64,000 bases of DNA, taken from positions 10,409 to 74,408 of the IMG/VR virus record IMGVR_UViG_3300023174_000145. The stretch is one strand, 5' to 3'. This document shows positions 29,869-49,531 of the stretch, in pieces. The notes under the pieces are model-generated. The model ran no database searches, was not told the origin of the DNA, and saw only the letters and a list, made by a program, of their open reading frames with translations. A program made the position numbers and the translations under genes. Source of the DNA: a virus. Every line of letters starts with the position of its first letter. The stretch's first letter is position 1.

Positions 29869-30395
29869 TATACTTCCACCAAACTAAGATTTATATCCCA
29901 AAGATCTGTATCTATGCCCCTAGTTATAATATTATATGAAAAGTTTTCAAAAAATACATTTACTATTTCTACATTTGTTTTAATTTCTGACTTTAATACT
30001 GAAGGATCATTGTCATAAACAAACAATGCCCAAAAACTTCCAGTATGATTGTTATACCAATCTAATATTTGTTGACCACCACCAAACTGATTTCTTGTAT
30101 TTGAATATTCAGTTACATAGTCTTTTCTAGATGGAAGTCTTTTCCAAGAAGTAGAATATGTTTTTTTATCTGCAATATGATATGAACGCATTGTTCCATT
30201 TATCATACGTTGTCTATGTTCTATTCTTTCAAAAGCAATAGCAAGATCTGAACGATTATCATCAGATAGATATAAATAATTTGTTCCAAGATCCCATTTT
30301 CCAGCTCTAGAACCTACACCTTCTACTGGCTTATCTTCTGTAAAAATAATTAATGATGGTCTAGAATATTTTTCTTGTAAGTATCCATATGACAT
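29868..30395 (-). CDS. Distal-tail-like minor tail protein
   Basis: Immediately follows the TMP; R.RMINGTMRSY.IADK, WDINLSLVEV. Confidence 0.65.
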   Translation of the reverse strand: MSYGYLQEKYSRPSLIIFTEDKPVEGVGSRAGKWDLGTNYLYLSDDNRSDLAIAFERIEHRQRMINGTMRSYHIADKKTYSTSWKRLPSRKDYVTEYSNTRNQFGGGQQILDWYNNHTGSFWALFVYDNDPSVLKSEIKTNVEIVNVFFENFSYNIITRGIDTDLWDINLSLVEV

Positions 30396-33300
30396 TAACA
30401 GTAAACACCTCTTGAGTTATTACCTATTGTACCACCCATAGCCTTATTAACGTGACCCATAACCATATCCATACCTGCACCATTAAAGTTAAAGTGATAA
30501 GTTGGGGCATTTGTGTTACCTTCTGCATATCCACCGCCATTATATTGTGCAATAGATGCTATACCAGATGGAGAAATGGATGGTGTTGAAGGAATACTAT
30601 ATGTAGGAGAAGATGGAACTGAGGTTCGTGGCATTACTCCAACACCACCCCCACCTGCATATCTTCCAGCATTAACAGCATTCATAAATGGAACGCCATA
30701 CTTTGCTACAGAAGAAGCCTTTACTACATATTCCCCATTTGACAACATCGCTGGTATAGAATCGGAAGTTGTGCTTCCTGGACCAACCATATGTCCACCA
30801 TTAGCGGCATATTTAAACCAAGGGAAAAGTCTATGAGTTATTCTAGAACCACCATAATTTGTTACGTTTGAATAATCTTCGCCCTCACCTTTACCTGTTA
30901 AAATATTGAATAGTGATTGAGCAGAGTCAAATTGATCCAGTTTTTCCGCTGCCTCTGGAACATATTTTTTGGCTGCTTTTCCAACAGGTTTTGCAGCATT
31001 TAATACCGACCTTACTCTATTGCTTTCAATTATTGATTTAATTTTATTAGACTCTGAAAAAGTTTTTAGTTTATTAACATCTGTAACTAAATCTATAAGT
31101 GTTCCACTAGCATAAACAGCATTTTTTGCATCTATTGTTTTTGACAATAATCCAGCAACTCTAGATGCTTTTGACGCAATAGATGCAATTCTTCCAACCT
31201 GAGCAAATTTTGCAAGCATAGCAGCCTGACCAGCTCCTGGAACAAACATAAGGGCGGTGGTGCCTAATTCTAATAATCCACCACCAAGTGATTTAAATCC
31301 AGCCTTAAATTCACCTTTTCTAAAATGCCTATACATACTAGTAAAATCATCAACACCCAGTAAATTATTTGCAATTCCAGAGCCAATACCCTTAATAAAC
31401 TTTTTAGGATCTTTCATTGTAGATATTGCAAAATTTTCAACAGTATCTGAGATGTCAGAGACGGTGCTTCTTGCTCCATTCCATAAACGTTTAACCAATC
31501 CACCAAATGCAAAGTGTTGAGAATTTATAGAATCTAAGAAAGGTTTTCCATACTTTGATACAGATGATGCTTTAACTACATATTCTCCATCAGATAACAT
31601 AGCTGGAATTGAGTCAGATGTTGCTGTTCCTGGACCTGAGATATATCCACCATCTGCCCAATATTTCCATTGTGTAACAGGAGTTTTTGATGGATCTGTT
31701 TTAAGTGCTTTTTTATTGTATGGAGATCCATCAGCATATTGCCATTTTCCACCAACTTCGTAAATTCTTGTTCCATCTTGAGCATATCCAGATTTTGCAG
31801 TTGATGGTGGGCTTGTTTGTGGAGTTGTTGGTGGATTTGTAATTCCAGGCAAACCATTTTCATTAAGTGTTATGGCATAAGCAAAAGCTGCAACAGCTTC
31901 TGTAACTCCAGGAGCAGGTGGTTTTTGCAAAAGACCAAATACATCCTTATAGGCTTTAGATGTTTCTGGATCAATACCCTGTGATTGAAATATCTTTTTT
32001 ACATTTGTACTTGCAGCATTTAATCTATCTACTGCATCCATCGTGTCTCCAGCCATAATAGCAACAGCATCATTAAAACCTGATTTTGCAGTGTTAAATG
32101 ATTTGATTATACTTTGATCTTTAGTATTAATAGTCAATCCAGTTCCAGCAGAAATTCCTGTCTTTTCTGCTTTATCTGCAGCAGATTGTGCAGCAAGTAT
32201 TGCTTTCTGCCAGCCTGGAGTACCAATAGACATACCCTGAGCTTTTTCAATCAAATCTAATGCTTGAGTTATTTGACCAACAGCTTGTGATTCTTTTTTG
32301 CGAAGCAAATCTATTTCTGCATTAATATTATCTATCTCAGCCTGATGTCTGGTATCTTCTGCTTTCTTTCTGTCATCAATAGCCTTTAATGAATCATCAA
32401 GTTTCTTTTGTTCTGCATCGGCGGTGTCTTGAATATTTTGCATAGACAAATCTCTACCATATTGATCTGCTGCACTTGCTGCCTCTATTTGAGAACCAAT
32501 AAATCCAAATACATCTCCAGATGCTATAGCCTTTAATCCAGTTAAACCAGTTTGTCTTTGCTTTGCATAAAAATCCTCTGCTTCTTTTTCTTTTTGTAAT
32601 TGCTTTAAATAGTAATCGGTATTTTCTTGCAATATACCTTTTTTGTTATTAATTCTTTCTGCTTCAAGATCTAGATTTTCTAATGCCTTTTCGTGTCTTT
32701 TATCTTCAGTTTCAAGTTCTGCCTGTTTTGCCTCTATTGCAACATCAAATACTTTTTGAATACCTTCTTTTAATTGATTTAGTTGTTTTGCGGTATCTTC
32801 TAGTTGAAGGTCAACATCAGTTTCTATTTTTACAAGAGACATTCTTTTTGCTAATTCTTCTGGAATTTTTTTGCCAAGGTCTGCCTCTATTGTTCCATTT
32901 AAAATTGCTGCACTAAGGTCTTGACCCATACCATTACCTAGAGCAAGAAGTGCAGCTTTTTGTTTTGATTTATCTAGTTTAAAGAAAGCACCATCTTTTC
33001 CAAAAAAATCAAACAGTGCGCTTCCTTCTCCAAAACCTGCATCTTTAACCATTTGTTGTAGTTGATCTGACAATTTTCCTATATCAGCATTTTTAAATTC
33101 AGAAACTATTAAATTTACTGCTTCTGTGGAAGCAGTTGGATTTTCCGCAGCCATTGCAAATGCAGATTTTAATGTTGCACCTAACTGTGATGCAATTTGA
33201 GTTTTAACTTTATTATCAATTAATACTGGTGCAATTAATGATGTAATCTGCGCTCCACCAAGATAGCCCCAAACACCTTTTGTTCCAAAAATTCCCCTTA

Positions 33301-36300
33301 AGAATTTATCCTTAAGACCATTTCCAGTTGCACCAAGTGCTTCAAACATTACTCTTTGATTTTCAGCACCAGACTTCATAAGTTGGTCCCAACTCTGACC
33401 ATTCCATTGTGCTTTAACACCAAATTCATTAGATCTCTGTTGTAATAAAGCTGTTTGATTTTTTAATGTTAATATTTGTTGAGCCAGAGCATCTGGTGCT
33501 GTTTTTATTGTTTTAAGTCTTTCAACTACACTAGCATAAGAATCTAAGGCTTGTCCTTGTCTTGCAATTTCTGCCGTTATTTCTCTTGCTTCTTTAGCCT
33601 TTATACCTCTTTGAATTAAATTGCTATAAACATTAACAAGCTGATTATTCTTTTCTTGCAAACTTTTTGTACTTTTTAATGTGTCAATCAATGGACTAAA
33701 ATCTGTTTTAACTGTTTTTTCAAAAGCTTTATTGTATGCACCAATGCCTTGATCTAAACCAGAAATATTTTGAGCAACTTTATTAAATTTTTCTACAGCA
33801 TCTGTTGTAGATTTTAACTGAATACCTAACAATTTTGCAGTTTCTGTAGGTTCAGCAAAAGCTGCTTTTCCAGCCTGTCTTGCTTTTTCCATTTCAGCAT
33901 TATAAATTTCAATACCTTTTTGAATCCCAGTAATTGCAAGATCAATTCCCATACTAACTATAGGATTACTTAAAGCACTTGCAAGTTTGCCCATACCAGA
34001 CCCAACTCCAGATAGTCCCTTTCCAATAAATCTTTTAATAGGACTATTAACAGCTTTTCTAGTTTTAATATCGTAGATATCGGCACTCATTTCGTCACCT
34101 TTATCTTTTAAGGTTTGTCCAAAAGTACCCATACCACTATTTGCAAAGTATTTTAGTCCTTGTGTAGCAGCAGCAATTCCAGCAACCCATTTTTGTCTGC
34201 CATTTTGAACATCAGATGTGAATTGATCCAATACAAACTTCATTTGAAAACCTGATGTTGCCATCATACTGAAAGCTGCAGCAAACTTACCCATACTTCC
34301 TGGTTGAATATCTCCCATATATACTGGTTCTGTAAAATCTGCCGATGTGCTGTCAAAGTTGTTTGCTCTAAAGTTTTTACCACGAATTAATGATGTTCCA
34401 AATGGATGAACAATTCTCTTTCTTGCTTCATCTCCTGGACTTGTAACACCTGCTACTCTGCCATCTGGAGTAACCGCCAAAAGTTCACGGCTTGAAACAG
34501 CCATTGGATGACCACTTGCAGATGTGACCAACATATCATCAATAGTGCTTGAAAGAATCTTACCATCAGGAGATACATTAACGGTAGCACCTGTACCACT
34601 AATTCTGTCTCCACCGCCAGCAAATGATGGATAAATAATTTTTGATTTAGAAACTCCACTTGGCATAACAACACCACTTCTTGATTGTGGAGTTTTTGCA
34701 TCTTCGTTATATGAAATAACTTTAACTGTTGGCAAGCCTGGTGGCAATGCTCTAGATTGAAGTGTTTCATAGAAGTCACCCTTTAGTCTTTCTTGCAAAC
34801 CTGCAACTACCGCAATAGGAATACCTTTTCCATCTTTTGTATTTCTTGGAAACATTCTTGCAAGTTCAAGCATAGTCATAGCACCTTGGCGGGTAGTTGG
34901 ATGAATACCCTTAGAAAGATTAGTTAACTGTTCAATTACAACATTCTTTGGTAATCCTGTTTGTGACATAACTGCATCAATAACATATGGTGCTAATAAT
35001 CCACCACGACTTTGAATATCGCCTCTGCTTTTAAGTGTTTCAAGGAATGTATTATATACCTGAGATTCTTTTATTAGATTTGCTGCTTCCCATATCTTTG
35101 TATACACTTCTCCAGTATTTGTTGTTGCAGGATTAATGTGCGCTAATACGTCTAGCATATAATACATAGCTTTTTTATCTGGATTTTCAAGACCAGCATC
35201 AATTAATGCTTGCATAATTGCTCGTGACTCTGCACCCTTTGTAGCCCAATCAGGCAGTGATCTTAAAACAGTTTCATATTGTTTTGGTGCAGATCCCTTT
35301 TTGTCCCATTTATGAGTTGCTTCTTTCATAGAGTCTTCTGCAAAATTATTCACTCTGCCGCCAGATTGTAGATGTTCTGGATTTAATAAATGTGAAACTC
35401 CAGTAATGTTTTTACCAGTAAGTTCATCTGTAACGCCAAAAAGTTTTGCAAGAGCAATTTCAATTATATTTGGATAAACTTTTGTTCCTGGATTTTTAGC
35501 CCTTCTGCGCTCCGTATTATCTCTAGTTTTTGCAAGAGTGCCACCAATTCCCTCAGCCGCTGTTTGAAAAACTGTATAATCAGCTTTTTTCCTTTGATAA
35601 ATTTTTTCAGGTAATGGAAAACCTTTAAGTTTTGCTGGCAAATTTTTTAAAGTATATGACCCATCTTTTTCTAGTACATATCCCAAAGCATCAAATGCTT
35701 TATCTACACCAAATGCTCCTAAGTCTGTTCTAACATCAGAAAACTCTCCTCGTTTTTTAAAGTCTTCTATTAGCGACTGAACCTTTTTTGACATTAAAGT
35801 TTTTTGATAAAGTTCTGGATCATTAATCATATCGTTTGGATCTGTTTTATTTAATTTGTTAGAAACAAAAGACTGTATTTCTTTAGGATTAATTGTTGTT
35901 CCAATTTTATTAAACAATGCAGTCATTGTATTTAAAGCTTTTGGTGCATTTATATAATTATACAAATCCATTTCTTTTGCTGATGACTTAGAAAGCTCAC
36001 TATTTAATGTTTTTGGTATGTCAAATCCAATAGGATAAAGCAATCTACTTGCTCCAAAACTCATATAAGGTACAGTATGTGCAAATGCTAAATTATTAGA
36101 TTTATATTCTTTTTGATACAAAGATTTATCAGCAAAATTATTTACTCTTCCACCAGATTGCAGCATCCAAGTTGGGAAACCTGCATCTATTGCCTGTTGA
36201 CGCTCTGCTGCATCTGCTGCTTTCTTTTCTAATGCTTTTGCTGTAGGAGCAGATTTTGGCTTAACTGGTTCTGGTTTAATGCCAACGTGATGAGCGTGTA

Positions 36301-39300
36301 TTTCTTTCCAATTAATTTTACTTGCTGCTGACAAATCACCAATAAGTAATTGATACATTGCTTTTTCTTCAGGTGTTAGATTTTGAAGAGCACCAATAGC
36401 ACCACCAGCATTTGCCTGTGCCTCAGCAATAGCATTTAAGAAACCAGCCTCATATTGCTCTGGTGTCATTGATGCTGCTATACCTGCTGTTGCTTCTGCA
36501 AACCATCTACGAGCACCACCTTTTTGCATAAGGAAATTAATTCTTGCTTGTGTAGCAACATCATACTTTTTACCACTTAATGTTCTTGGCTGTGATGCTC
36601 TATCTGAAACATATGCAGCACCTGTATCTGTAACAATGCTATCAAATAAATTATCTGCTTGAAGGTCGGCATCCCCACGAATAATTGCTGCAAGTGCTTG
36701 TTTAAAGAATGCTTCTGGTGCAATCTGTCCAGATGTTTTAGCAAATCTTGAATCAAACGGTGAACGAACACCAAACATTTGCTGACCAGTTTGTGGATGT
36801 AAGAATTTAATTAGTTCTTGTTGTGGTGTGGTCAAACCAAACATATCTTGAGTTAATTGTGTTCCTCTAGATTCAATAAGGGCGGAATCAAGTGTGTTAT
36901 GACCCTTAACAATAAACTTTTGACCATTAATTTCATAAACACCATTAACTCCAGGAATAGCAGAACTAAATCCGCCCATACCACTTTGTCTTTGACCAAC
37001 ATCAGTTATTGGCATACCAGCAAATCTTCCAGTAGTTGCTTCTAGATGAGCAAGGGCAAGCATTTCTTCAATAGCTGCTTGTTTGTCTGCATATTTTTGT
37101 GGCATTAATGATTTAGATTCAAAGTTGTTTACTCTTCCACCTTTTAGATATCCAACTGGACTAAGATCTGGTATATGAGCTGGATATGGTTGTTTTAGCT
37201 GTACATAGTCGCTATTCTCTTCATCCCAAATATCATAGATTGCTTTATTAGATATTGGAGATAGACTAATTCCATCTCTACCAATATTAAAGTTTGTTAT
37301 AGTTGCAGGAGACCATTTGATACCTTGATATCCTTCTTTAACTAAATATTCAAAAAATGGGGAGCCAGGACCACTATGTTCTGCTGCACTTGCTGCATCT
37401 CTAAGCCAATGATTTTTATTAAAGGATGGTCCATAATAATCTCTGTCCTGCATTGCTTCTTTTCCAGATTTTGTTCTAGAAAAAGAATTAATAAGTTGTA
37501 TTAATTGTTTACTTGGTTCGTGAAAATCTGTTGTTTCATCATATGCTTCAATATAGCCTTTTCCTCTAGCAACTTTTCTAAAAGCTTCTCTTGTTTTTGA
37601 AATAGTATATTTGAAGCCTCCTGCATAACTATCCCAGCCTTCATCGTGTGTCTTTAAGTTTGATGAAAAATATGTTCCAGGACCTTCCATTTGAGCTGAC
37701 CCTCTATCATACTTTTCCATAGTTTGAATACGACTTGGATCTATGGCAAGCATTTGGTCTCCAGCGTGAACCATAAACATTTCCATAAGAGCTGCTTTCA
37801 TTCCTGGACTTAACTGATTTGGATCAGTAATATTAAACATACTCATATATCTTCTTAGTATATTTAATTGTGTTTTTTCTTCTTCTGACCGACCAACAGC
37901 ATTAGGAAGCAAAATATGAAGTGCAGTATTTAAAGGATTTGATCCCCATATTTCATCATCTGGATATGGTCTTCTTTTTTCAGACCTTCCACGACCAAAA
38001 CCTTTAAAATTATGAGACTGTAACTCTGTATCTATATATTGAGAAGAAGCCTTTTTTATTTCTTCTTCTGTCCAGCCAACCTCAGCACTCTGTATTCTTC
38101 CACCATTTTGTTTAAAATTAAGAACATAAGGGAATAAATGCTTTTGCTCGTCATAGGCTTTTTGACCACCTCTGAAACTAGATGGCGGTGCCCACATTTG
38201 AGAAACAGAATCTAATACCCCAGAAGTTGTAGCTGTTGCTATTTCTCTTTCCTTTAACTGCTCTCCCATATATTCAGTGCTTTGTGCTATTTGTGATATA
38301 GGAAGCATTGATGTGCCTTTACCAAACAATCTTTCAATCATAACTGTTTGAGGCTCTACACCCATAGGAAGTTGGCTTTGAAGTTCATTCTTTACCGCCT
38401 GAACAGTTTCTTCTCTGGCTCTTCTACCACGATCTATAGCATCTTCAGTAATTGGATCGGTAGGAGATAAACCAATTCTTTTTTGTAAATCTTCTATTAC
38501 AAATGGATTATTTGGTTCTCTTCTAAACATATCAACAACATAATTAAATGCATCTAGATTCTTTTGTTTTCTAAGCAAGTCTTCTTGAATAAAACTTCTA
38601 CCAGAAAGAGGATTGCTAAATTGTTTTCCAACTAGCCAGTCAAGTGCGTGTTCGCTATATGATTGTGGAGAACCATTAAAGTTAATTTTTCTTCCAGCAA
38701 GACTTAAGAAATCTCCAGATTCTAGTGCTTGCAAAATAGCAAGTTGGTCTGCGTCTGGTATTTCTCCAGGAAGTCCCAAAGATGTTTTTCTTCTAAGAGT
38801 CATCGGGTCTTTAGATGGCTCAAAGTATGACATAAATTTTTGAAGTCTTTCTGGATCTTGTCTTAGATATTGAGTGCTTTGTTGCCAAGATTCTACTAAT
38901 GATAATAATTCTGGTGATACTGATTTATCAGCGTAGTTATTTACTCTACCGCCAGACTGGAATATAGGAACTTCACGACCATTTATATTTTTAGTTGCTC
39001 CTGGAAGAACAGAATGAAGCATAAGCATTCTTGTTTTAAGGTCACTACCATATCCAGTAATTGGAATACTCATTCCACCAGGAAGAATAAACTCACCTTC
39101 ATTGCCCCATTGAGTTGTACCTTGAAAAAGTGACTGAACATCTATGCCACCAATATTATTTCCTTTACCAGTCCAAAGGTCGTGTATCCAAGGAATTAAT
39201 TCTCCAGCATCTAGTTTTCTTTGACGAGAATCAGAAACCCTTTTATTTTTTGGATCTTGAAATGTTTTAATAAATCTTTTGTAAAATTCTGTATCTTGAA

Positions 39301-41839
39301 TATCACTGTATGAAGTAAACCTATCTAATCTTTGCTGATATGGTGCATTTGCCCAATTCAATCTTACATCTCCACGACCACCACGACTGGTAAGCCACAT
39401 AAGAGTTTCCCATATTTGTCTTACTTCTGGAGTATGTCTATTTTTATCATCATATAATTCTGCTCGCATTAAATGCTTGTTTTCTAATGAAGTTGAGCCA
39501 GAAACGTCATTAAAAATATCTCTAAAAAATCCTGGATACTTTTCTCCCATTGGAGAGATTCTACCAATTCCAGGAGAACCAGCATTTGCATCAAATGGTC
39601 TACGACCAGCAAGAACTGGATTTATCCAAGCCCTTAATGCAAGTTGTAAATCTTCTGGAGTATATGATGTATTAGCATATCCATTTATTCTACCACCCGA
39701 TTGAAAGCGAGGTGCTTGTTTAAAGTTAATCTCATCAAGAAGACCAGAATGTTGCTGTGCTGCTTTTTTATTTACAACATATTCTCCAGGCTCAAGCATT
39801 GCTGGAACCTTATCTCCGTCTCCACTTCCTGGCACCCAAGGAGAACCACCTCTTTGGAATTTTGCTCTTGGTGGGCTTCCAGTAGTAGTCTGAGCAGCAA
39901 CTTGTTGATTAACAAATCCTGGATTTAATGTAATAGCCTCACTAAGATGTTTTTTATAAACTGCAAGAACTTGATTAAGTTTTTCAACACTAGTTTTTTG
40001 TTGCTCAAAAGCCATAGATAGAGCATCTGTTGATTTTTGTGCCATAAGTTGTGTGTCATCAAGCATCTTAAATTTTTCAACAGGGATACCAGACATTCTT
40101 CTACCAAGGTTAACAATACCCATAGCACCTTTAGCAATATAACCAATAAAGTTAGAAAATACACCAGCAACCATAATTATTGGACCAGCAATTACAGCCA
40201 ATCCAGTCGCTACTTTAATAAAAGATTTTACAGGAGATGGAAGTTTTTCAAAAAATTTGATTACTTGTCCAATTTTTTTAGTCACGTTTTCAATAATTGG
40301 AGTAATTGCACTTGTAATAGAACCACCAATATCAATAAACTGTGATTTAATAGATTCTGTTGCTCTTTGGAATCTTTTAGCACCACTATTCATAAGTGTA
40401 TCCATTTCAAGATATGAATTAGCAGCAAGTTCTTTTTGAGACTTACCCATCAATTCCATAACTTGCATAGTCTGTGAACTTGATGCATTTAGATTATCAA
40501 ACAGTGCAGATATACGAGCAAACTGATATTTACCAAATATGTTTTCAATAACTTGTGCTTTACCAAAATCATCAAGTAGCTGTAATTGTTTTTGAAATTC
40601 AATAATTGTTGGCATAAGTTGTCCACGATTTGCTTGAACAATCTTGTTAATATCTATTCCATATTGTGCAGCAACTTCAGTTGCTCTCTTAGTTGGATTA
40701 ATAAGAGATGCCATACCAGATTTAATTGCGTTAGCACCTTCTGCCGCAGATATACCACCTTCTTTAAGAGCAACCATAAGAAGCGAAAGATCTTTAACGT
40801 CTCCACCAAGTGCTTTAATAACAGGACCAGCTTTTGGAATTGCTGTTGTTAAGTCTTGCAAAGAAAGAGATGTTTGGTTTTCTACAGCATTTAAAAAGTC
40901 AACAGAGTGAGCAAGTTCATCTGTACTAACTTTAAATGCATTTTGAATAGATAGCGTTGCTTTCATAGCATCTGCTCTATCTACATCACCAAGAGTTGCT
41001 AAACGAGTAGTTTCTCTAATTGAATTTAAAAGTTTTTGCCCTTCAAGACCTGTTGCCGCAAGGTCTGCGGCTAGTGATGCGGTATCTTTTACAGCAATAC
41101 CCATAGTTTTTGCAAACTCAATACCTAGTTGCTTTACATTTTCAGTCATTTTAATTGTTTCAGCGTCACCAGATGACATAAGACCAGAACCATAAACTTT
41201 TTGGAATCTTGTTAATTCTTCATTTACTTCACGGAAAATCTTTGACATTTGATTTCCCCACATAGTTAGTGGTACAGTAAGACCAACAGTAATCTGTCTA
41301 CCAGCCCATTGTGTATTTTTACCAAAATTAATAAGTTTGGTTGTTCCATCTTGAACTATAGAATTAAATATATCAAACTGTTTTCTAGAAACAGCAAGTT
41401 TTGTGTTAAAATCATTAAGATTAATATTTTGTGGGGTAATCATCATCCCCAGTTGCTTGCCACTCTTTTCACCAAGAATAGCAAGTTGTGACATTTCACG
41501 AGCAACTTCACGAACTGCTAATTTATGTGCATTTGATGATTTTGTAAATGCACCAATTCCTTCTTTTGCATATTGTTTTAGGCTTAGTTCCTGTTTTTCA
41601 AGGGCTTTTCCAAAAGAAGTTACATTATCAGTGAGCTCTATTACCTTTGTGTTCCAGCCACCCATCTTTCCAATATCACTAGAAAGTGCGTCACCAAGAC
41701 TTAGTTTTAATGCAGATGCTTGTTTATCAAAATTTTGAAGTGTTTGATTTAAAAGATTTGCTTGCGTTTGCAATAAACGCATCTGATTAATGACTGGACC
41801 AAAATCAGCATTATACTTAAAATAAGCATCAATACTCAT
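30395..41839 (-). CDS. Tape measure protein (3814 aa) carrying an internal array of enzymatic cargo domains
   Basis: Follows the tail chaperones; N-terminal TP901-type TMP core (LAATGLEG...DFLNAVENQTSLSLQDLTTAIPKAGPVI...GISAAEGANAIKSG); three GG...D..PAML..GEYVV motifs; long helical/coiled-coil C-half. Confidence 0.93.
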   Translation of the reverse strand: MSIDAYFKYNADFGPVINQMRLLQTQANLLNQTLQNFDKQASALKLSLGDALSSDIGKMGGWNTKVIELTDNVTSFGKALEKQELSLKQYAKEGIGAFTKSSNAHKLAVREVAREMSQLAILGEKSGKQLGMMITPQNINLNDFNTKLAVSRKQFDIFNSIVQDGTTKLINFGKNTQWAGRQITVGLTVPLTMWGNQMSKIFREVNEELTRFQKVYGSGLMSSGDAETIKMTENVKQLGIEFAKTMGIAVKDTASLAADLAATGLEGQKLLNSIRETTRLATLGDVDRADAMKATLSIQNAFKVSTDELAHSVDFLNAVENQTSLSLQDLTTAIPKAGPVIKALGGDVKDLSLLMVALKEGGISAAEGANAIKSGMASLINPTKRATEVAAQYGIDINKIVQANRGQLMPTIIEFQKQLQLLDDFGKAQVIENIFGKYQFARISALFDNLNASSSQTMQVMELMGKSQKELAANSYLEMDTLMNSGAKRFQRATESIKSQFIDIGGSITSAITPIIENVTKKIGQVIKFFEKLPSPVKSFIKVATGLAVIAGPIIMVAGVFSNFIGYIAKGAMGIVNLGRRMSGIPVEKFKMLDDTQLMAQKSTDALSMAFEQQKTSVEKLNQVLAVYKKHLSEAITLNPGFVNQQVAAQTTTGSPPRAKFQRGGSPWVPGSGDGDKVPAMLEPGEYVVNKKAAQQHSGLLDEINFKQAPRFQSGGRINGYANTSYTPEDLQLALRAWINPVLAGRRPFDANAGSPGIGRISPMGEKYPGFFRDIFNDVSGSTSLENKHLMRAELYDDKNRHTPEVRQIWETLMWLTSRGGRGDVRLNWANAPYQQRLDRFTSYSDIQDTEFYKRFIKTFQDPKNKRVSDSRQRKLDAGELIPWIHDLWTGKGNNIGGIDVQSLFQGTTQWGNEGEFILPGGMSIPITGYGSDLKTRMLMLHSVLPGATKNINGREVPIFQSGGRVNNYADKSVSPELLSLVESWQQSTQYLRQDPERLQKFMSYFEPSKDPMTLRRKTSLGLPGEIPDADQLAILQALESGDFLSLAGRKINFNGSPQSYSEHALDWLVGKQFSNPLSGRSFIQEDLLRKQKNLDAFNYVVDMFRREPNNPFVIEDLQKRIGLSPTDPITEDAIDRGRRAREETVQAVKNELQSQLPMGVEPQTVMIERLFGKGTSMLPISQIAQSTEYMGEQLKEREIATATTSGVLDSVSQMWAPPSSFRGGQKAYDEQKHLFPYVLNFKQNGGRIQSAEVGWTEEEIKKASSQYIDTELQSHNFKGFGRGRSEKRRPYPDDEIWGSNPLNTALHILLPNAVGRSEEEKTQLNILRRYMSMFNITDPNQLSPGMKAALMEMFMVHAGDQMLAIDPSRIQTMEKYDRGSAQMEGPGTYFSSNLKTHDEGWDSYAGGFKYTISKTREAFRKVARGKGYIEAYDETTDFHEPSKQLIQLINSFSRTKSGKEAMQDRDYYGPSFNKNHWLRDAASAAEHSGPGSPFFEYLVKEGYQGIKWSPATITNFNIGRDGISLSPISNKAIYDIWDEENSDYVQLKQPYPAHIPDLSPVGYLKGGRVNNFESKSLMPQKYADKQAAIEEMLALAHLEATTGRFAGMPITDVGQRQSGMGGFSSAIPGVNGVYEINGQKFIVKGHNTLDSALIESRGTQLTQDMFGLTTPQQELIKFLHPQTGQQMFGVRSPFDSRFAKTSGQIAPEAFFKQALAAIIRGDADLQADNLFDSIVTDTGAAYVSDRASQPRTLSGKKYDVATQARINFLMQKGGARRWFAEATAGIAASMTPEQYEAGFLNAIAEAQANAGGAIGALQNLTPEEKAMYQLLIGDLSAASKINWKEIHAHHVGIKPEPVKPKSAPTAKALEKKAADAAERQQAIDAGFPTWMLQSGGRVNNFADKSLYQKEYKSNNLAFAHTVPYMSFGASRLLYPIGFDIPKTLNSELSKSSAKEMDLYNYINAPKALNTMTALFNKIGTTINPKEIQSFVSNKLNKTDPNDMINDPELYQKTLMSKKVQSLIEDFKKRGEFSDVRTDLGAFGVDKAFDALGYVLEKDGSYTLKNLPAKLKGFPLPEKIYQRKKADYTVFQTAAEGIGGTLAKTRDNTERRRAKNPGTKVYPNIIEIALAKLFGVTDELTGKNITGVSHLLNPEHLQSGGRVNNFAEDSMKEATHKWDKKGSAPKQYETVLRSLPDWATKGAESRAIMQALIDAGLENPDKKAMYYMLDVLAHINPATTNTGEVYTKIWEAANLIKESQVYNTFLETLKSRGDIQSRGGLLAPYVIDAVMSQTGLPKNVVIEQLTNLSKGIHPTTRQGAMTMLELARMFPRNTKDGKGIPIAVVAGLQERLKGDFYETLQSRALPPGLPTVKVISYNEDAKTPQSRSGVVMPSGVSKSKIIYPSFAGGGDRISGTGATVNVSPDGKILSSTIDDMLVTSASGHPMAVSSRELLAVTPDGRVAGVTSPGDEARKRIVHPFGTSLIRGKNFRANNFDSTSADFTEPVYMGDIQPGSMGKFAAAFSMMATSGFQMKFVLDQFTSDVQNGRQKWVAGIAAATQGLKYFANSGMGTFGQTLKDKGDEMSADIYDIKTRKAVNSPIKRFIGKGLSGVGSGMGKLASALSNPIVSMGIDLAITGIQKGIEIYNAEMEKARQAGKAAFAEPTETAKLLGIQLKSTTDAVEKFNKVAQNISGLDQGIGAYNKAFEKTVKTDFSPLIDTLKSTKSLQEKNNQLVNVYSNLIQRGIKAKEAREITAEIARQGQALDSYASVVERLKTIKTAPDALAQQILTLKNQTALLQQRSNEFGVKAQWNGQSWDQLMKSGAENQRVMFEALGATGNGLKDKFLRGIFGTKGVWGYLGGAQITSLIAPVLIDNKVKTQIASQLGATLKSAFAMAAENPTASTEAVNLIVSEFKNADIGKLSDQLQQMVKDAGFGEGSALFDFFGKDGAFFKLDKSKQKAALLALGNGMGQDLSAAILNGTIEADLGKKIPEELAKRMSLVKIETDVDLQLEDTAKQLNQLKEGIQKVFDVAIEAKQAELETEDKRHEKALENLDLEAERINNKKGILQENTDYYLKQLQKEKEAEDFYAKQRQTGLTGLKAIASGDVFGFIGSQIEAASAADQYGRDLSMQNIQDTADAEQKKLDDSLKAIDDRKKAEDTRHQAEIDNINAEIDLLRKKESQAVGQITQALDLIEKAQGMSIGTPGWQKAILAAQSAADKAEKTGISAGTGLTINTKDQSIIKSFNTAKSGFNDAVAIMAGDTMDAVDRLNAASTNVKKIFQSQGIDPETSKAYKDVFGLLQKPPAPGVTEAVAAFAYAITLNENGLPGITNPPTTPQTSPPSTAKSGYAQDGTRIYEVGGKWQYADGSPYNKKALKTDPSKTPVTQWKYWADGGYISGPGTATSDSIPAMLSDGEYVVKASSVSKYGKPFLDSINSQHFAFGGLVKRLWNGARSTVSDISDTVENFAISTMKDPKKFIKGIGSGIANNLLGVDDFTSMYRHFRKGEFKAGFKSLGGGLLELGTTALMFVPGAGQAAMLAKFAQVGRIASIASKASRVAGLLSKTIDAKNAVYASGTLIDLVTDVNKLKTFSESNKIKSIIESNRVRSVLNAAKPVGKAAKKYVPEAAEKLDQFDSAQSLFNILTGKGEGEDYSNVTNYGGSRITHRLFPWFKYAANGGHMVGPGSTTSDSIPAMLSNGEYVVKASSVAKYGVPFMNAVNAGRYAGGGGVGVMPRTSVPSSPTYSIPSTPSISPSGIASIAQYNGGGYAEGNTNAPTYHFNFNGAGMDMVMGHVNKAMGGTIGNNSRGVYC
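36164..37108 (-). other. TMP cassette 4: HipA/PI3K-like kinase fold
   Basis: Gly-rich loop GGFSS..GVNGVY, FIVK, E helix (LIES), GL.TP, DADLQADN, DTG. Confidence 0.6.
37151..38080 (-). other. TMP cassette 3: H-Y-type ART (ART-PolyVal-like) domain
   Basis: MVHAG...IDPSRI...GPGTYFS...Y...LVKEGYQGIKW. Confidence 0.55.
38117..38920 (-). other. TMP cassette 2: second R-S-ExE ART-like domain
   Basis: TLRR ... PQSYS ... KGTSMLPISQI ... KEREI. Confidence 0.55.
38963..39673 (-). other. TMP cassette 1: R-S-ExE ADP-ribosyltransferase-like domain
   Basis: LMRA ... FTSYS ... GGIDVQSL ... NEGEFILPGG. Confidence 0.7.
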
Positions 41840-41841
41840 TA

Positions 41842-42216
41842 TTAATTAACTCCAATCATTCCATAGGAAAGACCATCATCTTCACTAATACCAAAAGCAA
41901 TAGCATTTGCCTGAGTCATATCTCCAGTAACCCTTGCAGCAGCTCTTGCTTGAATTTCTTCTAGTGTTGTCACTTTTTCACTTTGTTGCGTTTGTGAATC
42001 TGATAAATCAATGCCCTGAATTGCAGCAAGGAATTTATTTTGACGATTTTCTTTTTCATGCATAGCACCTAATGTAGCTATAAGCTCAGACATTGACAAA
42101 CTATTCTCTAGTTCTTCATAGTCTTTCCAGTGACCTAATAGGAATACTTCTGCTTCCAAGGCAGCCAGGTCTAGTTCGTTCCAGCTAGTTCCTGAGCTGC
42201 CGCTAGTAGGTTTGGG
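41842..42216 (-). CDS. Tail assembly chaperone, post-frameshift (gpT-like) segment
   Basis: The -1 frame is open from the slippery site: ...GSSGTSWNELDLAALEAEVFLLGHWKDYEELE...; sits between the chaperone and TMP. Confidence 0.8.
   Translation of the reverse strand, partial: PKPTSGSSGTSWNELDLAALEAEVFLLGHWKDYEELENSLSMSELIATLGAMHEKENRQNKFLAAIQGIDLSDSQTQQSEKVTTLEEIQARAAARVTGDMTQANAIAFGISEDDGLSYGMIGVN
42161..42216 (-). promoter_or_regulatory. Programmed -1 ribosomal frameshift signal
   Basis: Heptamer C CCA AAC (42216-42210), 8-nt spacer, stem GGCAGC(T)CAGG...CCTGGCTGCC. Confidence 0.8.
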
Positions 42217-42503
42217 TCGTTAAGCTTAATATCTGCAGCAACCTCCAATATTTTATACATAGTCTGAAGATCTAAAACCTCTTCAAGTTTTTCGACCTCC
42301 GAAAGTTCTGGTGCGAACTGCTTCATAGCAATTGATGTACATTCAATGAGGGTCTCCAAGAAACCATCTTCACTATCCTTAGTTTCGATTTCTTTCCACT
42401 TTTTCATTACTTCTCTTAAGTTTTTAAGATTGAGTGGTTTAACGGTTATTACTGTACCGTCCTGTAATTCCATCTCAATTGATTCATATATTTTTGTAGC
42501 CAT
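42171..42503 (-). CDS. Tail assembly chaperone (gpG-like)
   Basis: Between the major tail and TMP genes; AGGAG RBS. Confidence 0.85.
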   Translation of the reverse strand: MATKIYESIEMELQDGTVITVKPLNLKNLREVMKKWKEIETKDSEDGFLETLIECTSIAMKQFAPELSEVEKLEEVLDLQTMYKILEVAADIKLNDPNLLAAAQELAGTN

Positions 42504-42609: not shown

Positions 42610-43308
42610 TTAAGCAGTTACATATAGACGATCAATGATCTTTCCATAAAGTTGGTTTGCACCAGCACCAGCATTATTGAACTGTGATGAAGCCAAGAGA
42701 CGGAATGTTACAGGGAATACTGTAGCTTCATTTCTCTTAATTGCAACCGAAGCAGCTTCCATAGAAACAGCACGATAACCAATGTAGATACGCTCTGAGT
42801 ATTTTTCGTTATTAACAGCTGTTCCAATTTCTGGACCTGGACCAACAATAAGAATTGAACGCTCCAAAGGAGTAAGACCTAGAGCACCACCATTAATCTC
42901 GAACCTTTTGATTGTTCCAGATGATGTCGGACTTGATGTAGCCTGAAGATCTGTTGACTGTGAACCAACAACAGCGTAAAGGTTTTCAAGACTTGCCTCT
43001 GCAAAAGTTGTCTTAACCATTGCTTTCTGACCTTGCTTGTAAATCTTTGCAACATCAAGAAGCTGATCAACATTTACTTCACCATAATCTGGGGTAAAGT
43101 CAAATGTAACACCTTCAGATGTGTAACCAACGTGTCTCCACTTATCTGTAGCTTCTTGAACATTGCTTGGTTTTTGATAACTACCAGCGGTATTTGCAGT
43201 CCAAATTGCTTCAGTTTTAGCAATACTAGTTTCTGTCAATTCTTGACCAACAGCACCAACGTAGAAAACGCCAGCACCAACAATAATATTTTTTGAATTG
43301 TTTGCCAT
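42610..43308 (-). CDS. Major tail protein
   Basis: NIIVGAG, VGYTSEG, P.YGEV.VDQLLD, KRNEATVFPVTFRLL; position. Confidence 0.85.
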   Translation of the reverse strand: MANNSKNIIVGAGVFYVGAVGQELTETSIAKTEAIWTANTAGSYQKPSNVQEATDKWRHVGYTSEGVTFDFTPDYGEVNVDQLLDVAKIYKQGQKAMVKTTFAEASLENLYAVVGSQSTDLQATSSPTSSGTIKRFEINGGALGLTPLERSILIVGPGPEIGTAVNNEKYSERIYIGYRAVSMEAASVAIKRNEATVFPVTFRLLASSQFNNAGAGANQLYGKIIDRLYVTA

Positions 43309-47791: not shown

Positions 47792-49531
47792 TTAGTTTAA
47801 GTATTGAGCGGAGCCGAGGAAGCGTCCCCCCCATAGAGATTCTGATTTCTCTATAGTTGTTTCTGAAGAACCGTCAAGCTCTCCAGACTTTTTAACAGCA
47901 GTATCATTTTCTACTGATTCAAGTCTTCCATTAACCTGAGTCAGAGCAGTAACAATATCTGCCAAACCTTTGTTTAACTCTTCATAACGATTTTCTGTTT
48001 CTGTTAGTTTATCTGTAAGAGCTTTTGTAACTTCTGCCAATGTATTTGCAACATTAGATACAGCCTCAACATTAGCATCAGCATTCTTTACGAGTGCCTC
48101 GCCAACAAAATTTTTGATTTCGTTTAGTGTTTTTTCAAGGTCAGTCGCTTCACCTGAATCGGTGGAAGCGTCAACTGCTTCTGCAGTTTCTTCGACTGTT
48201 TCTTCGTTAACTTCTACTGCAGCCTCTTCTGCAGGAGCCTCTGCTGGAACTTCATCAGCTGCCTCTACAGCAACCTCTTCTGCCTCAACAACTTCGTCAA
48301 CAATTACTTCTTCTACTACTTCTGTAGCCTCTGTGTTGTCAGTCATTTCAACACCTCCTTCATTATTTTGGGTGGCAACCGACATATCCTTGTTAATTGC
48401 CATATCTACTGAATCATTGTCCAGTAAAATCTCTGTATCTGATGGAATAAAGAATTTTTTAACTCTAGTAGACCATCCCTTCAAACTGCTCATTTTATGT
48501 CCTACAAGTGTTTGTGATGGTTTCCAAGAATCTCCATCTTTTTGATAAACTCTGATAACAACGGCTGGATCTTCTTTAGTTCCAGTTACAGTAAAATCAG
48601 AGTTTGGTACTTTAATTTTACCATTAGTTATTACTCTTGTTATCTTTCCTCTTGCTGTACCGCCAGAAGATCCCCACTGTACATAATCTCCAACACCATA
48701 TGATGCCTTAGTAGCAAGAGTTTCTGGTGTTTTTCTTTTAGGATTTTGTTTTGGATATCTATTAATTGTTTCTTCATTTGTAATAGTTCCAGCATTATCT
48801 GCCTTTTTAATAGCATCAACTAATTCTGATATTGCTTTTTCAATATCTGCTTTTTCAATCTCATCTACCCATCCGACAGCAACCAAATCATTATTACAAT
48901 TAACACAAGTATATTTATCTTCAGTAGATGTAAATGCAATATCATCTTCTTCACACCAGAATACATTTTGAATGTGTGATTTATTAAAAATACCAGTCGC
49001 TACATCGCCATCAATAGTCTTTTGAATAGAAAAAATATTAGCAAGTTGATTTGCTGGAGAATCGACAAGGGATAGTTCAACCAAGTCATATTCTTTAATT
49101 ACACGAACTGTTTTATTTAAATCTTCGTCAAACTCGTTTTCTGCATCTTTTACAGCACCACCGATTGAAAAACCAGTAAGTGTTCCATCTAAAACCATTT
49201 CCCAAATGTCAGATGCACCCTTAGAAATATATGCATCTACATAAACACCATTATATGTTTTCTGAGTTTGTGTATCAAAAAATGAATCTGTCCTAAATGA
49301 AACTATTTTACCAGCGGGAATTGGCTGATGCATCAATCTTACATTACCACGAAAATTAGCAAATGCTTTTTCTGATGCAGATGATTCTACACGATCTCCT
49401 TGACGATCAATATTATCAAGAGTAGCAAACCCAGAAACAATACGTTTTTCAGCATCAACCTTAGAAATTGGCATTGTCAATGTTACTTGATTGCCGTTAG
49501 TTAATAGGGATGCCTTTTGTATATTTAACAT
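47792..49531 (-). CDS. Prohead protease fused to a zinc finger, a Tudor-like insert and an acidic scaffold
   Basis: VSGFATLDNIDRQGD, MH, GFSIGG, ELSLVDSPAN (HK97-type protease); Glu/Ala-rich and coiled-coil C-half. Confidence 0.88.
   Translation of the reverse strand: MLNIQKASLLTNGNQVTLTMPISKVDAEKRIVSGFATLDNIDRQGDRVESSASEKAFANFRGNVRLMHQPIPAGKIVSFRTDSFFDTQTQKTYNGVYVDAYISKGASDIWEMVLDGTLTGFSIGGAVKDAENEFDEDLNKTVRVIKEYDLVELSLVDSPANQLANIFSIQKTIDGDVATGIFNKSHIQNVFWCEEDDIAFTSTEDKYTCVNCNNDLVAVGWVDEIEKADIEKAISELVDAIKKADNAGTITNEETINRYPKQNPKRKTPETLATKASYGVGDYVQWGSSGGTARGKITRVITNGKIKVPNSDFTVTGTKEDPAVVIRVYQKDGDSWKPSQTLVGHKMSSLKGWSTRVKKFFIPSDTEILLDNDSVDMAINKDMSVATQNNEGGVEMTDNTEATEVVEEVIVDEVVEAEEVAVEAADEVPAEAPAEEAAVEVNEETVEETAEAVDASTDSGEATDLEKTLNEIKNFVGEALVKNADANVEAVSNVANTLAEVTKALTDKLTETENRYEELNKGLADIVTALTQVNGRLESVENDTAVKKSGELDGSSETTIEKSESLWGGRFLGSAQYLN

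Follow-up and report, generated by a model that had tools for sequence, protein, structure and literature searches.

A giant tape measure protein with an array of exchangeable kinase- and ADP-ribosyltransferase-like modules in an uncultured freshwater siphovirus

Tape measure protein and its gene context

The window analysed here (the whole stretch of viral DNA, 64,000 nucleotides) contains an open reading frame (ORF) of 3814 aa, in the middle of which the same short peptide recurs six times. An earlier note, made from the letters alone, had read this ORF as a tape measure protein (TMP) bearing six enzyme-like cassettes, which would be threaded through the tail as one polyprotein and cut at the linkers. 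The locus thus raises the question of what this protein is, what the segments between the repeated peptides are, and whether a phage tail could carry enzymes into the host. The source phage is an uncultured freshwater (lake) siphovirus, which is known only from metagenomes. According to the analysis below, its TMP carries an apparently acquired array of five exchangeable modules, including kinase-fold and ADP-ribosyltransferase (ART)-like modules, which are probably delivered to the host. The following features define the TMP and its neighbourhood.

30395..41839, minus strand: TMP ORF P0001, uninterrupted, 3814 aa
39707..41839, minus strand: N-terminal TMP core, aa 1-711, containing PF10145 at aa 240-436
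40121-40234, minus strand: main hydrophobic segment of the TMP, aa 536-573, inside the N-terminal core
39704..39853, minus strand: first copy of the general TMP motif, G..GD.VPAMLEPGEYVV...L..IN, aa 663-712, ending in joint 1
30398..34339, minus strand: C-terminal TMP half, aa 2501-3814, matching TMP PHROGs and solved TMPs
31496-31681, minus strand: further copy of the motif GPG..SDSIPAMLS.GEYVV in the C-terminal half
30635-30814, minus strand: another further copy of the same motif in the C-terminal half
41842..42503, minus strand: two short ORFs of 105 and 110 aa, located where tail assembly chaperones would be expected, assigned by position alone
42610..43308, minus strand: tail tube protein (PF25681, E 7.7e-8)
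47792..49531, minus strand: prohead serine protease (S78), fused to further domains

The ORF at 30395-41839 on the minus strand is a genuine TMP of the TP901/PF10145 type in the canonical gene position, and the earlier note's reading of it as a TMP is borne out. The Pfam search identified PF10145 (PhageMin_Tail, E 6.6e-29), and phrog_10030 (E 8e-106) together with many further TMP PHROGs also matched the ORF. The N-terminal core shares 32% identity with the TMP of Streptomyces phage Wakanda across aa 157-632, and the C-terminal half matches the solved TMPs of mycobacteriophage Douge (gp16, 8zdo_S, E 1.5e-15) and JBD30 (8rk3_A, E 7e-5), both of which also contain the general TMP motif. When the profile of the whole TMP was searched against the PDB, only other TMPs were matched. 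The gene order, in which the tail tube gene is followed by two small ORFs and then the TMP, is the same as in Wakanda; a family search with the two small ORFs gave no match. Of the ten neighbouring proteins that were scanned, only the S78 prohead enzyme was recognised as a protease. The portal protein of Wakanda is 54% identical to that of the studied phage, and its TMP is cassette-free with a length of 2088 aa; without aa 712-2470, the TMP studied here would have about 2055 aa, which is close to that length. A tail of about 310 nm would be expected if this scaffold alone sets the length, and one of about 570 nm if all 3,814 aa do.

The repeated joint peptide

The motif GGR[IV] was found six times in the TMP, at aa 715, 963, 1246, 1567, 1896, and 2160, within joints that start at aa 712, 960, 1242, 1564, 1893, and 2157, and the six-fold linker described earlier is borne out residue for residue.

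39671..39706, minus strand: joint 1, FQSGGRINGYAN, aa 712-723
38927..38962, minus strand: joint 2, FQSGGRVNNYAD, aa 960-971
38081..38116, minus strand: joint 3, FKQNGGRIQSAE, aa 1242-1253
37115..37150, minus strand: joint 4, YLKGGRVNNFES, aa 1564-1575
36128..36163, minus strand: joint 5, LQSGGRVNNFAD, aa 1893-1904
35336..35371, minus strand: joint 6, LQSGGRVNNFAE, aa 2157-2168

About 0.1 copies of GGR[IV] would be expected by chance (our own estimate, based on rough residue frequencies), and the motif is absent from every other ORF of the window. The joint consensus, [FLM]-x-x-GG-R-[IV]-x-[NGS]-[YFA], introduces each module and represents the terminal part of a longer motif, G..D.IPAMLS.GE.V..., which is common to many TMPs. 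The joints also mark the cassette boundaries in 30 homologous TMPs. At the DNA level, the six copies vary at synonymous positions and their longest common exact run is 14 nt, indicating that the conserved unit is the peptide and not a recent DNA repeat; a DNA-level repeat as the source of the joints was rejected on these synonymous differences. The segments enclosed by the joints are richer in proline and aromatic residues than the TMP core.

Cassettes 1 and 2: an R-S-E ART-like family

38963..39670, minus strand: cassette 1 body, aa 724-959, R-S-E ART-like (R792, F-T-S843, E914-G-E916)
38117..38926, minus strand: cassette 2 body, aa 972-1241, divergent ART-like (R1017, S1060-Y-S1062, E1197-R-E1199)

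Both cassettes possess, in order, the Arg, Ser-x-Ser, and Glu-x-Glu motifs of R-S-E ARTs (C3/VIP2/Alt type). The triad of cassette 1 (R792/S843/E916) is invariant in 10 homologues, and cassette 2 carries a long helical hairpin insertion (about aa 1081-1156). By profile-profile comparison, both match the same related cassette family, A1, with probabilities of 94.7% for cassette 1 and 97.4% for cassette 2. In the merged family of 48 sequences, the Arg, the aromatic residue, and the catalytic Glu are each present in all 48, the Ser in 44, and the first Glu in 37. Judged by these profile matches and sequence motifs, cassettes 1 and 2 are distant relatives in one ART-like family. The six segments had been thought mutually unrelated, which does not hold for this pair, since both match A1 and have the R / S-aromatic-S / E triad in common.

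The sequence NEGEFILPGG, which surrounds the ExE motif of cassette 1, aligns with NEMEVILPRG of T4 Alt, and the Pfam Scabin-like family gave a weak match to the same ExE region (E 0.095). The hhalign comparison of the cassette families with T4 Alt, ModA, and ModB, for which single-sequence targets and shallow alignments were used, was not significant (P 0.015-0.7); some of the best local matches fall on the ExE motif, namely those of cassette 1 with ModA and Alt and those of cassette 2 and the merged profile with ModB. The AlphaFold2 (AF2) model of cassettes 1-3 has a mean pLDDT of 47, with values below 50 in cassettes 1 and 2 except for the cassette 2 hairpin, and the fold search of this model matched only that helical hairpin. 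The alignments used for folding were built from whole proteins and some of their rows were misaligned, which probably lowered the quality of the cassette 1-3 model. Protein atlas neighbours of cassette 1 were unnamed clusters at 0.82 and were uninformative, and no standalone homologue of cassettes 1 and 2 was found among the proteins of 291-928 aa in a set of 5.8 billion proteins. The suggestion of two R-S-ExE ARTs is therefore retained as far as the conserved, ordered triads are concerned, but not for the ART fold, for which the AF2 model is poor, nor for a significant profile match.

Cassette 3: a possible H-Y-type ART

37151..38080, minus strand: cassette 3 body, aa 1254-1563, possible H-Y-type ART (H1358, G-P-G-T-Y1390-F-S)

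All 10 homologues compared retain H1358 and Y1390-F-S, even one with 27% identity. The cassette fits the H-x-[GST] and G-x-G-x-Y-F motifs of ART-PolyVal, a correspondence confined to the His and Tyr positions, and its nearest language-model clusters are those of PF18760 ART-PolyVal (score 0.87, a lead only). Cassette 3 may thus be an H-Y-type, ART-PolyVal-like domain. For the H-Y-type ART previously suggested here, the conserved His and Tyr motifs are favourable, but the PF18760 profile did not match cassette 3 even at E 10 in the Pfam HMM search. The AF2 model of cassette 3 is partly confident (pLDDT 60-90), and the fold search of the model that includes it was dominated by the hairpin of cassette 2. 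A standalone search recovered one fragment.

Cassette 4: an atypical kinase fold

36164..37114, minus strand: cassette 4 body, aa 1576-1892, atypical protein-kinase-like

Cassette 4 was predicted by AF2 with a pLDDT above 90 as a bilobal kinase fold, and all of its structural matches are kinases; the secreted kinases CotH and Fam20 are among its best VIA matches. The beta3 Lys (K1645), the helix-C Glu (E1656), the catalytic D...N loop (R-G-D1723-x-D1725-L-x3-N1730), and the Mg-binding D-x-G (D1738-x-G1740) are all present. Across 147 domains, conservation reaches 99% for K1645 and E1656, 97% for D1723, 99% for D1725, and 100% for both N1730 and D1738. An atypical protein-kinase fold, of the group that comprises HipA/CtkA, PI3/4K, and CotH, is therefore well supported by the predicted structure, and its catalytic residues make the domain active-looking as a kinase. 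The earlier label of a HipA/PI3K-like kinase survives in the kinase fold and the catalytic residues, but not as HipA proper, since HipA_C (PF07804) gave no Pfam match to cassette 4 even at E 10; among 14 homologous TMPs, one showed HipA_C at E 3.9e-4, which is under the level for assignment. Cassette 4 is thus filed as kinase-fold, not as HipA. A PDB sequence search with the cassette 4 profile returned nothing meaningful.

Cassette 5 and the constant module

35372..36127, minus strand: cassette 5 body, aa 1905-2156, alpha/beta domain with a confident fold prediction
34340..35335, minus strand: constant module, aa 2169-2500, the sixth cassette of the earlier note

Cassette 5 was modelled with a pLDDT of about 80-90 and has the invariant residues F-A-H1921, P1936, G1938, N1946, D2007, Y2011, and R2037; no match was found in Pfam, PHROG, NCBIfam, or GenBank phages. 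Cassettes 4 and 5 are both predicted as compact mixed alpha/beta domains. As a lead, the model of cassette 5 shows what may be a beta-beta-alpha arrangement with a His at the strand end.

The segment after joint 6 recurs in each of the 31 clade members and invariably comes last, with 48-77% identity. It is a constant module of the clade and not an exchangeable cassette, so that the six cassettes first described become five variable modules followed by a constant one. An HNH-like domain had been suggested for it, a label that finds no support: Pfam and NCBIfam gave no family match, and AF2 predicted low-confidence helices followed by a disordered stretch. The fold search of the cassette 4-6 model returned a list filled by kinase matches.

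Exchange of cassettes among related phages

Approximately 20 cassette architectures were found in 34 homologous giant TMPs, a count that likewise applies to the 31 clade members, and adjacent cassettes within one protein pair range from 35% to 92% in identity. In the homologue L001 the order is altered, with the kinase followed by relatives of cassettes 2 and 3 (44%, 38%, and 80% identity, respectively), and joint 3 is also found ahead of the 80%-identical cassette. The number of architectures together with this altered order indicates that the cassettes swap: related phages gain, lose, or reorder cassettes between conserved joints. A comparison of this kind had been proposed in the earlier note, and now that it has been run, the number, identity, and order of the cassettes prove to vary at the conserved joints. 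Elsewhere in the superfamily, TMPs carry HAD phosphatase and M23 domains.

No significant Pfam, PDB, or hhalign match was obtained for cassettes 1, 2, 3, and 5, no cassette matched in NCBIfam or PHROGs, and a PDB sequence search with the cassette region gave nothing meaningful. Among GenBank phages, there was no match to the cassette region at the DNA level or to cassettes 3, 4, and 5 at the protein level, and a search for hosts or prophages in GTDB genomes by two pattern scans, one for cassette 4 and one for the constant module, found nothing. Related strains were seen in the contigs of four freshwater runs, which were too fragmented for mapping cassette breakpoints. A joint-to-joint junction, 35294 to 38927, was seen in X2; one of its sides spans only 30 nt, and it may be due to the similarity of the joints.

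Proposed delivery and processing

Given the gain, loss, and reordering of cassettes among relatives, the host probably receives preformed enzymes through the tail. A TMP occupies the tail tube and would be expelled before the DNA, and its modules would thus be the first to enter the host. Kinases require ATP and ARTs require NAD+, and the periplasm is not known to contain either, so that the kinase and putative ART modules would be expected to act in the cytoplasm, on targets of host takeover or anti-defence. Their exchange at the joints among related phages would be as expected in an arms race. According to our estimate, three copies of folded domains of 27-37 kDa would be tight in a tail tube lumen of about 4 nm, and the modules may pass through it unfolded.

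There is a fair prospect, somewhat short of an even one, that the joints are also processing sites, by analogy with the mapped site in T5 pb2. In its full form the proposal is more tentative: the joints would be true processing sites, the polyprotein would be cut during tail assembly or ejection by a host or phage protease, and free ARTs, a kinase, and other enzymes would enter the cytoplasm before the DNA, with the joint serving a large group of aquatic phages as both a cleavage signal and an exchange socket. The TMP has one Cys in 3814 aa, which is its last residue, and contains no HExxH metallopeptidase motif; an intein or an in-cis protease was rejected on these two grounds. In addition, no peptidase family matched within the TMP in Pfam.

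The same enzymes may also work uncut, a reading that we likewise regard as possible rather than likely. Here, the joints would be glycine-rich hinges or peptides in contact with the tube or a chaperone, allowing each module to fold and unfold independently, and the modules would remain tethered to a membrane-inserted TMP and act at the DNA entry site, as proposed for gp96 of Thermus phage P23-45 while it is fused to the TMP pore. The TMP lacks a protease domain, and the array directly follows its main hydrophobic segment (aa 536-573), both in line with an uncut protein, and the P-R preceding the T5 cut is seen in joint 1 only and is missing from joints 2-6. [quoted passage not shown]

It is improbable that the modules, instead of reprogramming the host, work outside the cytoplasm and aid envelope crossing, as muralytic domains do in other TMPs. 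Known TMP-embedded enzymes are mostly peptidoglycan hydrolases, as in T5 pb2, one distant homologue contains Peptidase_M23, and the matches of cassette 4 to CotH and Fam20 concern secreted kinases; against this stand the need for ATP or NAD+ and the result that no muralytic family was detected in the TMP by Pfam or NCBIfam. That the modules are decayed, inactive domains serving as tail-length filler or decoys is very improbable, for although four of the five lack a significant family match and the models of cassettes 1-3 are poor, conservation across 147 homologues amounts to 97-100% for the catalytic residues of the kinase, the ART triad is conserved in 48 sequences, and Wakanda, with its 54%-identical portal, has a cassette-free TMP of about the length of the remaining scaffold.

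If delivery through the tail is true, long-tailed phages would have a second route, besides head-packaged proteins, to import a customisable set of enzymes, which would be present in the cell ahead of all phage gene expression. The great excess in length of some TMPs over what their tails require would also be accounted for, and a reservoir of unannotated enzyme families, among them kinases and ARTs, would be indicated that is almost confined to giant TMPs. The joint would offer a defined peptide 'socket' usable for loading foreign cargo into phage tails, and the long-standing question of the sites and the purpose of TMP cleavage becomes directly testable.

Comparison with known systems

MARTX toxins, with which the array had been compared, likewise contain interchangeable effector domains within one giant polypeptide. 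However, MARTX effectors are freed by an internal cysteine protease domain, which is absent from the studied TMP, and the delivery machinery is unrelated; with a single Cys and no HExxH, the analogy fails on mechanism. T4 Alt is annotated as an R-S-E mono-ADP-ribosyltransferase that the virion contains and injects along with its DNA, and its ExE segment can be aligned with that of cassette 1; in contrast to the modules described here, Alt is a separate head-packaged protein and not part of the tail, and the overall profile similarity of Alt, ModA, and ModB to the cassettes is not significant.

T5 pb2, likewise a TMP, contains an embedded enzyme domain. Cleavage takes place after R1127, between SFVPR and AEGGMMYPG, directly before this domain, which is thereby separated from the rest (Linares et al. 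2023, PMC10038345), and the sequence of this cut site resembles that of joint 1, APRFQSGGRINGYA. Unlike the TMP studied here, pb2 possesses a single small C-terminal muralytic domain that acts in the periplasm, only one joint, and no ART or kinase, and the longer PAMLS.GE motif is absent.

A precedent for delivery is gp96 of P23-45, a 5,002-aa TMP with a two-barrel RNA polymerase fused in its N-terminal part; virions contain this protein, and 5 min into infection it is detected on the phage DNA (Chaban et al. 2024, Nat Commun 15:317, PMC10770324). As a giant TMP with a fused enzyme that acts in the cytoplasm, it demonstrates that TMPs are able to deliver functional enzymes. It differs in carrying one enzyme and no cassette array, in having no sequence in common with the studied TMP, and, as far as the available text goes, in that no repeated joint or swapping is reported.

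Polyvalent proteins of phages and conjugative elements combine many unrelated conflict enzymes within a single polypeptide, ARTs and protein kinases among them, and are proposed to enter with the DNA via the conjugation apparatus or phage-tail injection, with recombinational variability suggested (Iyer et al. 2017, PMC5512222). The studied TMP has at least two unrelated conflict-type enzyme domains among its kinase fold, ART-like families, and other modules, and ART-PolyVal is the nearest lead for cassette 3. [quoted passage not shown] The earlier remark that this is not a described system is true in part only: a TMP-fused cytoplasmic enzyme (PMC10770324) and polyvalent ART/kinase proteins (PMC5512222) have been published.

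Finally, the Sle1-type effectors of actinobacterial contractile injection systems have a TMP-derived scaffold (Nagakubo et al. 2026, PMC13277306). As far as they are described in the available part of that report, they belong to a bacterial injection system and have one C-terminal functional domain and no repeated joints, but they share with the TMP studied here an exchangeable functional domain on a TMP-derived scaffold, which is loaded in a tail-like tube and ejected.

Tape measure protein and its genomic context

The viral contig from which the window was taken (IMG/VR, 74.4 kb) has an estimated completeness of 67%, and all large ORFs lie on the minus strand. One of them is the subject of this section:

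30395-41839 (-), ORF of 3814 aa with no internal stop, tape measure protein (TMP)

Residues 1-711 matched PF10145 (E 6.6e-29) and 24 PHROGs, 21 of which are annotated as tape measure and three of which carry no functional annotation; along the C-terminal 1300 residues there were matches to seven further tape-measure PHROGs and five of unknown function. In gene order, the TMP comes after the tail tube gene (PF25681) and two ORFs of chaperone size, and a prohead S78 protease and a portal lie further upstream. Streptomyces phage Wakanda (Stanwilliamsviridae) has a portal sharing 54% identity with this one, and the same gene order. The Wakanda TMP (2088 aa, core 32% identical) has no inserted segment, and the window's TMP without aa 712-2470 would measure about 2055 aa. 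The solved TMPs of mycobacteriophage Douge and Pseudomonas phage JBD30 contain matches to the GPG..SDSIPAMLS.GEYVV motifs at the C-terminus of the window's TMP. On account of the family matches, the gene position, the comparison with Wakanda and the motifs of solved TMPs, the tape measure assignment, already made in the earlier note, is secure.

The only Cys of the TMP is its last residue, cassettes 1-5 (1445 aa in all) having none, compared with a mean of 0.66% in the other window ORFs longer than 150 aa; several other virion proteins also lack Cys. This near-absence is consistent with passage outside the cell, and other virion proteins here show the same.

Elsewhere in the window, the S78 prohead serine protease (47792-49531 (-), 579 aa) is fused to a Hva1_TUDOR-like segment. 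A 645-aa class II ribonucleotide-reductase-like ORF (55591-57528 (-)) adjoins a 1351-aa ORF (51520-55575 (-)) with a Laminin_G_3 domain. The 1351-aa ORF lies in a low-GC island (GC 0.27 vs about 0.35) immediately next to the portal gene, and GC is also low in a second block, at about 20-30 kb, that covers the large distal tail genes. Lake and freshwater metagenomes include the stretch or near relatives, and two studies besides that of the probable source sample contain 29-60% of its sampled words.

Joints between the segments

GGR[IV] occurs six times in the TMP (aa 715, 963, 1246, 1567, 1896 and 2160), always within the peptide [FL]-[QK]-x-GG-R-[IV]-[NQ]-[NGS]-[YFA]-[AE], and the motif scan recovered the same six joints that the earlier note gives (starts aa 712, 960, 1242, 1564, 1893 and 2157). 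These open cassettes 1-5 (bodies aa 724-959, 972-1241, 1254-1563, 1576-1892 and 1905-2156) and segment 6 (aa 2169-2500). The motif was not found in the other ORFs of the window, and about 0.1 occurrences would be expected by chance (our own estimate from rough residue frequencies); the repeated pattern is real. At the DNA level the six copies differ in their choice of synonymous codons and have at most 14 exact bases in common, so it is the peptide that is under selection.

Joint 1 is the end of a motif of about 50 residues (GSGDGDKVPAMLEPGEYVV...LLDEINFKQAPRFQSGGRINGYA), two further copies of which, ending in FAFGG and YAGGGG, lie near the TMP C-terminus. Each joint thus repeats the final part of a motif that is general among TMPs. 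In more distant TMPs, the same kinase cassette is flanked by whole copies of this motif or by related GG-x-[IV]-P-G-[FY] peptides. In most of the homologous giant TMPs P0005-P0031 the last 18 residues (HVNK..GGRI.SNSRRIG) contain a further GGR motif, the seventh, where the window's TMP has GGTIGNNSRGVYC.

Cassette exchange among relatives

A search with aa 700-2480 returned 34 proteins of 2578-3892 aa, almost all with PF10145, and 30 of them have the same joints (3-7 per protein). The inter-joint segments clustered into 21 families, with about 20 architectures among 31 clade members, and identity to the window's TMP was strongly mosaic. Homologue P0007 is 89% identical in the core, 90% in cassette 4 and 54% in cassette 1, with cassettes 2, 3 and 5 absent or replaced; P0004 is 35% identical in cassette 2, and 79% and 91% in cassettes 3 and 4. 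The TMP of an IMG/VR relative (L001:6830-17326 (+), at least 3499 aa) carries a kinase-like segment (44%), a cassette-2-like segment (38%), a joint and a cassette-3-like segment (80%), an order that differs from the window's. Cassette number, identity and order thus vary between conserved joints, the outcome that the check proposed in the earlier note called for, and the architectures, mosaic identity and cassette families support the proposed modular, swappable, enzyme-bearing TMP.

Segment 6, taken in the earlier note for a further exchangeable and HNH-like cassette, is instead a constant module: it is present and last in 31/31 clade members, at 48-77% identity with many invariant positions. 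It had no family match and its predicted model was of low confidence; the HNH-like label is unsupported.

An exhaustive search with HMMER for cassettes 1-4 returned 167 matches, nearly all of 1200-4900 aa and mostly through cassette 4, and no homologue of cassettes 1 and 2 was matched among proteins of 291-928 aa. The cassettes were found almost only within giant proteins.

Among 14 TMPs scanned, one matched Pfam Acid_phosphat_B (E 4e-10) and another Peptidase_M23; the set included P0048 (3615 aa), which has a DIDDT motif (HAD phosphatase motif I) directly after its kinase cassette, at about aa 1020. One contig of lake metagenome run X2 joins window positions 35294 and 38927, omitting 3632 nt. 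Its junction ends lie 11-22 codons past joints 6 and 2, with just 30 nt matching on one side, so that similarity between the joints, instead of a true deletion variant, may account for it.

Cassette 4

AF2 modelled aa 1580-1893 at pLDDT >90 from a 44-row alignment, and Foldseek against the PDB matched this model to LepB, CtkA (prob 1.00), HipT, HipA, MavQ and eukaryotic protein kinases. The catalytic residues are 97-100% conserved in 147 homologous domains:

K1645, beta3 Lys
E1656, helix-C Glu
R-G-D1723-x-D1725-L-x3-N1730, loop
D1738-x-G1740

Large phage proteins with the names ADP-ribosyltransferase and PI3/4-kinase are among the BFVD matches. Of the earlier label HipA/PI3K-like kinase, the kinase fold stands on the AF2 model, Foldseek matches and conserved residues; HipA family membership was dropped because cassette 4 had no Pfam match, and it is classed here as an atypical kinase-fold domain.

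ADP-ribosyltransferase-like cassettes

Neither cassette 1 nor cassette 2 had a significant family match; cassette 1 gave just a Scabin-like match (E 0.095), at its ExE segment. By profile-profile comparison, they matched A1, the commonest first cassette family among relatives, with probabilities of 94.7% and 97.4% (A1 against family A2, 96.3%). As both match the A1 profile, their sequences mark them as distant relatives, and the segments are not all mutually unrelated as first described. A merged alignment of 48 sequences shows R792/R1017 as an invariant Arg. The Ser of S-[FY]-[STA] is found in 44/48, and all 48 have both the aromatic that follows it and the second Glu of E-x-E (E916/E1199). 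Order and spacing match those of R-S-E ADP-ribosyltransferases (ARTs). GNEGEFILPGG of cassette 1 aligns with SNEMEVILPRG of T4 Alt and DEQEVMIPAG of ModA, with hhalign scores that were not significant. The AF2 model of cassettes 1-3 (mean pLDDT 47) was confident only in a helical hairpin of cassette 2 and parts of cassette 3, and this hairpin filled both fold-search lists; for these reasons the ART reading is motif-based. Cassettes 1 and 2 are quite probably R-S-E ART-like.

H1358 and G-P-G-T-Y1390-F-S of cassette 3 are invariant in 10 homologues. Its nearest language-model clusters were all ART-PolyVal (PF18760; 0.86-0.87), as a lead only, and the PF18760 profile did not match it; the chances that cassette 3 is ART-PolyVal-like appear evenly balanced.

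Cassette 5

35372-36127 (-), cassette 5, alpha/beta model (AF2) at pLDDT about 80-90

The invariant residues are F-A-H1921, N1946, D2007, Y2011 and R2037. All fold-search lists for the model containing cassette 5 were filled by kinase matches. In the model, H1921 ends a predicted strand and N1946 lies in the helix after the next strand, an arrangement that recalls the His-Me finger and may serve as a lead. Cassette 5 may be a His-Me-finger-like module travelling with the kinase. In many distant TMPs the kinase cassette is directly followed by an h-x-[DE]-[AT]-H motif.

Possible cleavage and delivery

No signs of cleavage were seen in the TMP sequence. Polyvalent proteins and MARTX toxins have protease mechanisms of their own; this TMP, lacking an HExxH motif and with a single Cys among 3814 aa, has neither mechanism, and the MARTX-like release envisaged earlier finds no counterpart here. 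T5 pb2 is cut after R1127, between a hydrophobic stretch and the muralytic domain (Linares et al. 2023, PMC10038345), and the site in the T5 record (...SFVPR|AEGGMMYPG) resembles joint 1 (APRFQSGGRINGYA), whereas joints 2-6 lack its P-R. In lambda gpH, too, the cut falls in a glycine-rich region; the site and the protease are unknown. By analogy, cleavage at the joints is conceivable, though somewhat doubtful.

According to Iyer et al. 2017 (PMC5512222), ARTs, kinases and peptidases are combined in single phage polypeptides, the polyvalent proteins; that paper makes no mention of tape measure proteins. Our literature searches returned no description of enzyme-cassette arrays on TMPs, and the window's TMP belongs to kinds already known, TMP-fused enzymes and polyvalent proteins. 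Nagakubo et al. (2026, PMC13277306) reported effectors related to TMPs in actinobacterial injection systems.

TMPs fill the tail tube as trimers (hexamers of gpH* in lambda), are expelled ahead of the DNA and are thought to form a trans-envelope channel. Chaban et al. 2024 (PMC10770324) showed that gp96, the TMP of P23-45, contains an active RNA polymerase, and that gp96 occurs in virions and, 5 min into infection, on phage DNA; fusion to a TMP therefore does not prevent an enzyme from working in the cytoplasm. The cassettes of the window's TMP may, as the earlier note proposed, be injected into the host. By our own volume estimate, a trimer of the window's TMP would fill about 40% of a tube 310 nm long with a lumen of 4 nm. 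Folded domains of 27-37 kDa would fit tightly there and may pass through unfolded.
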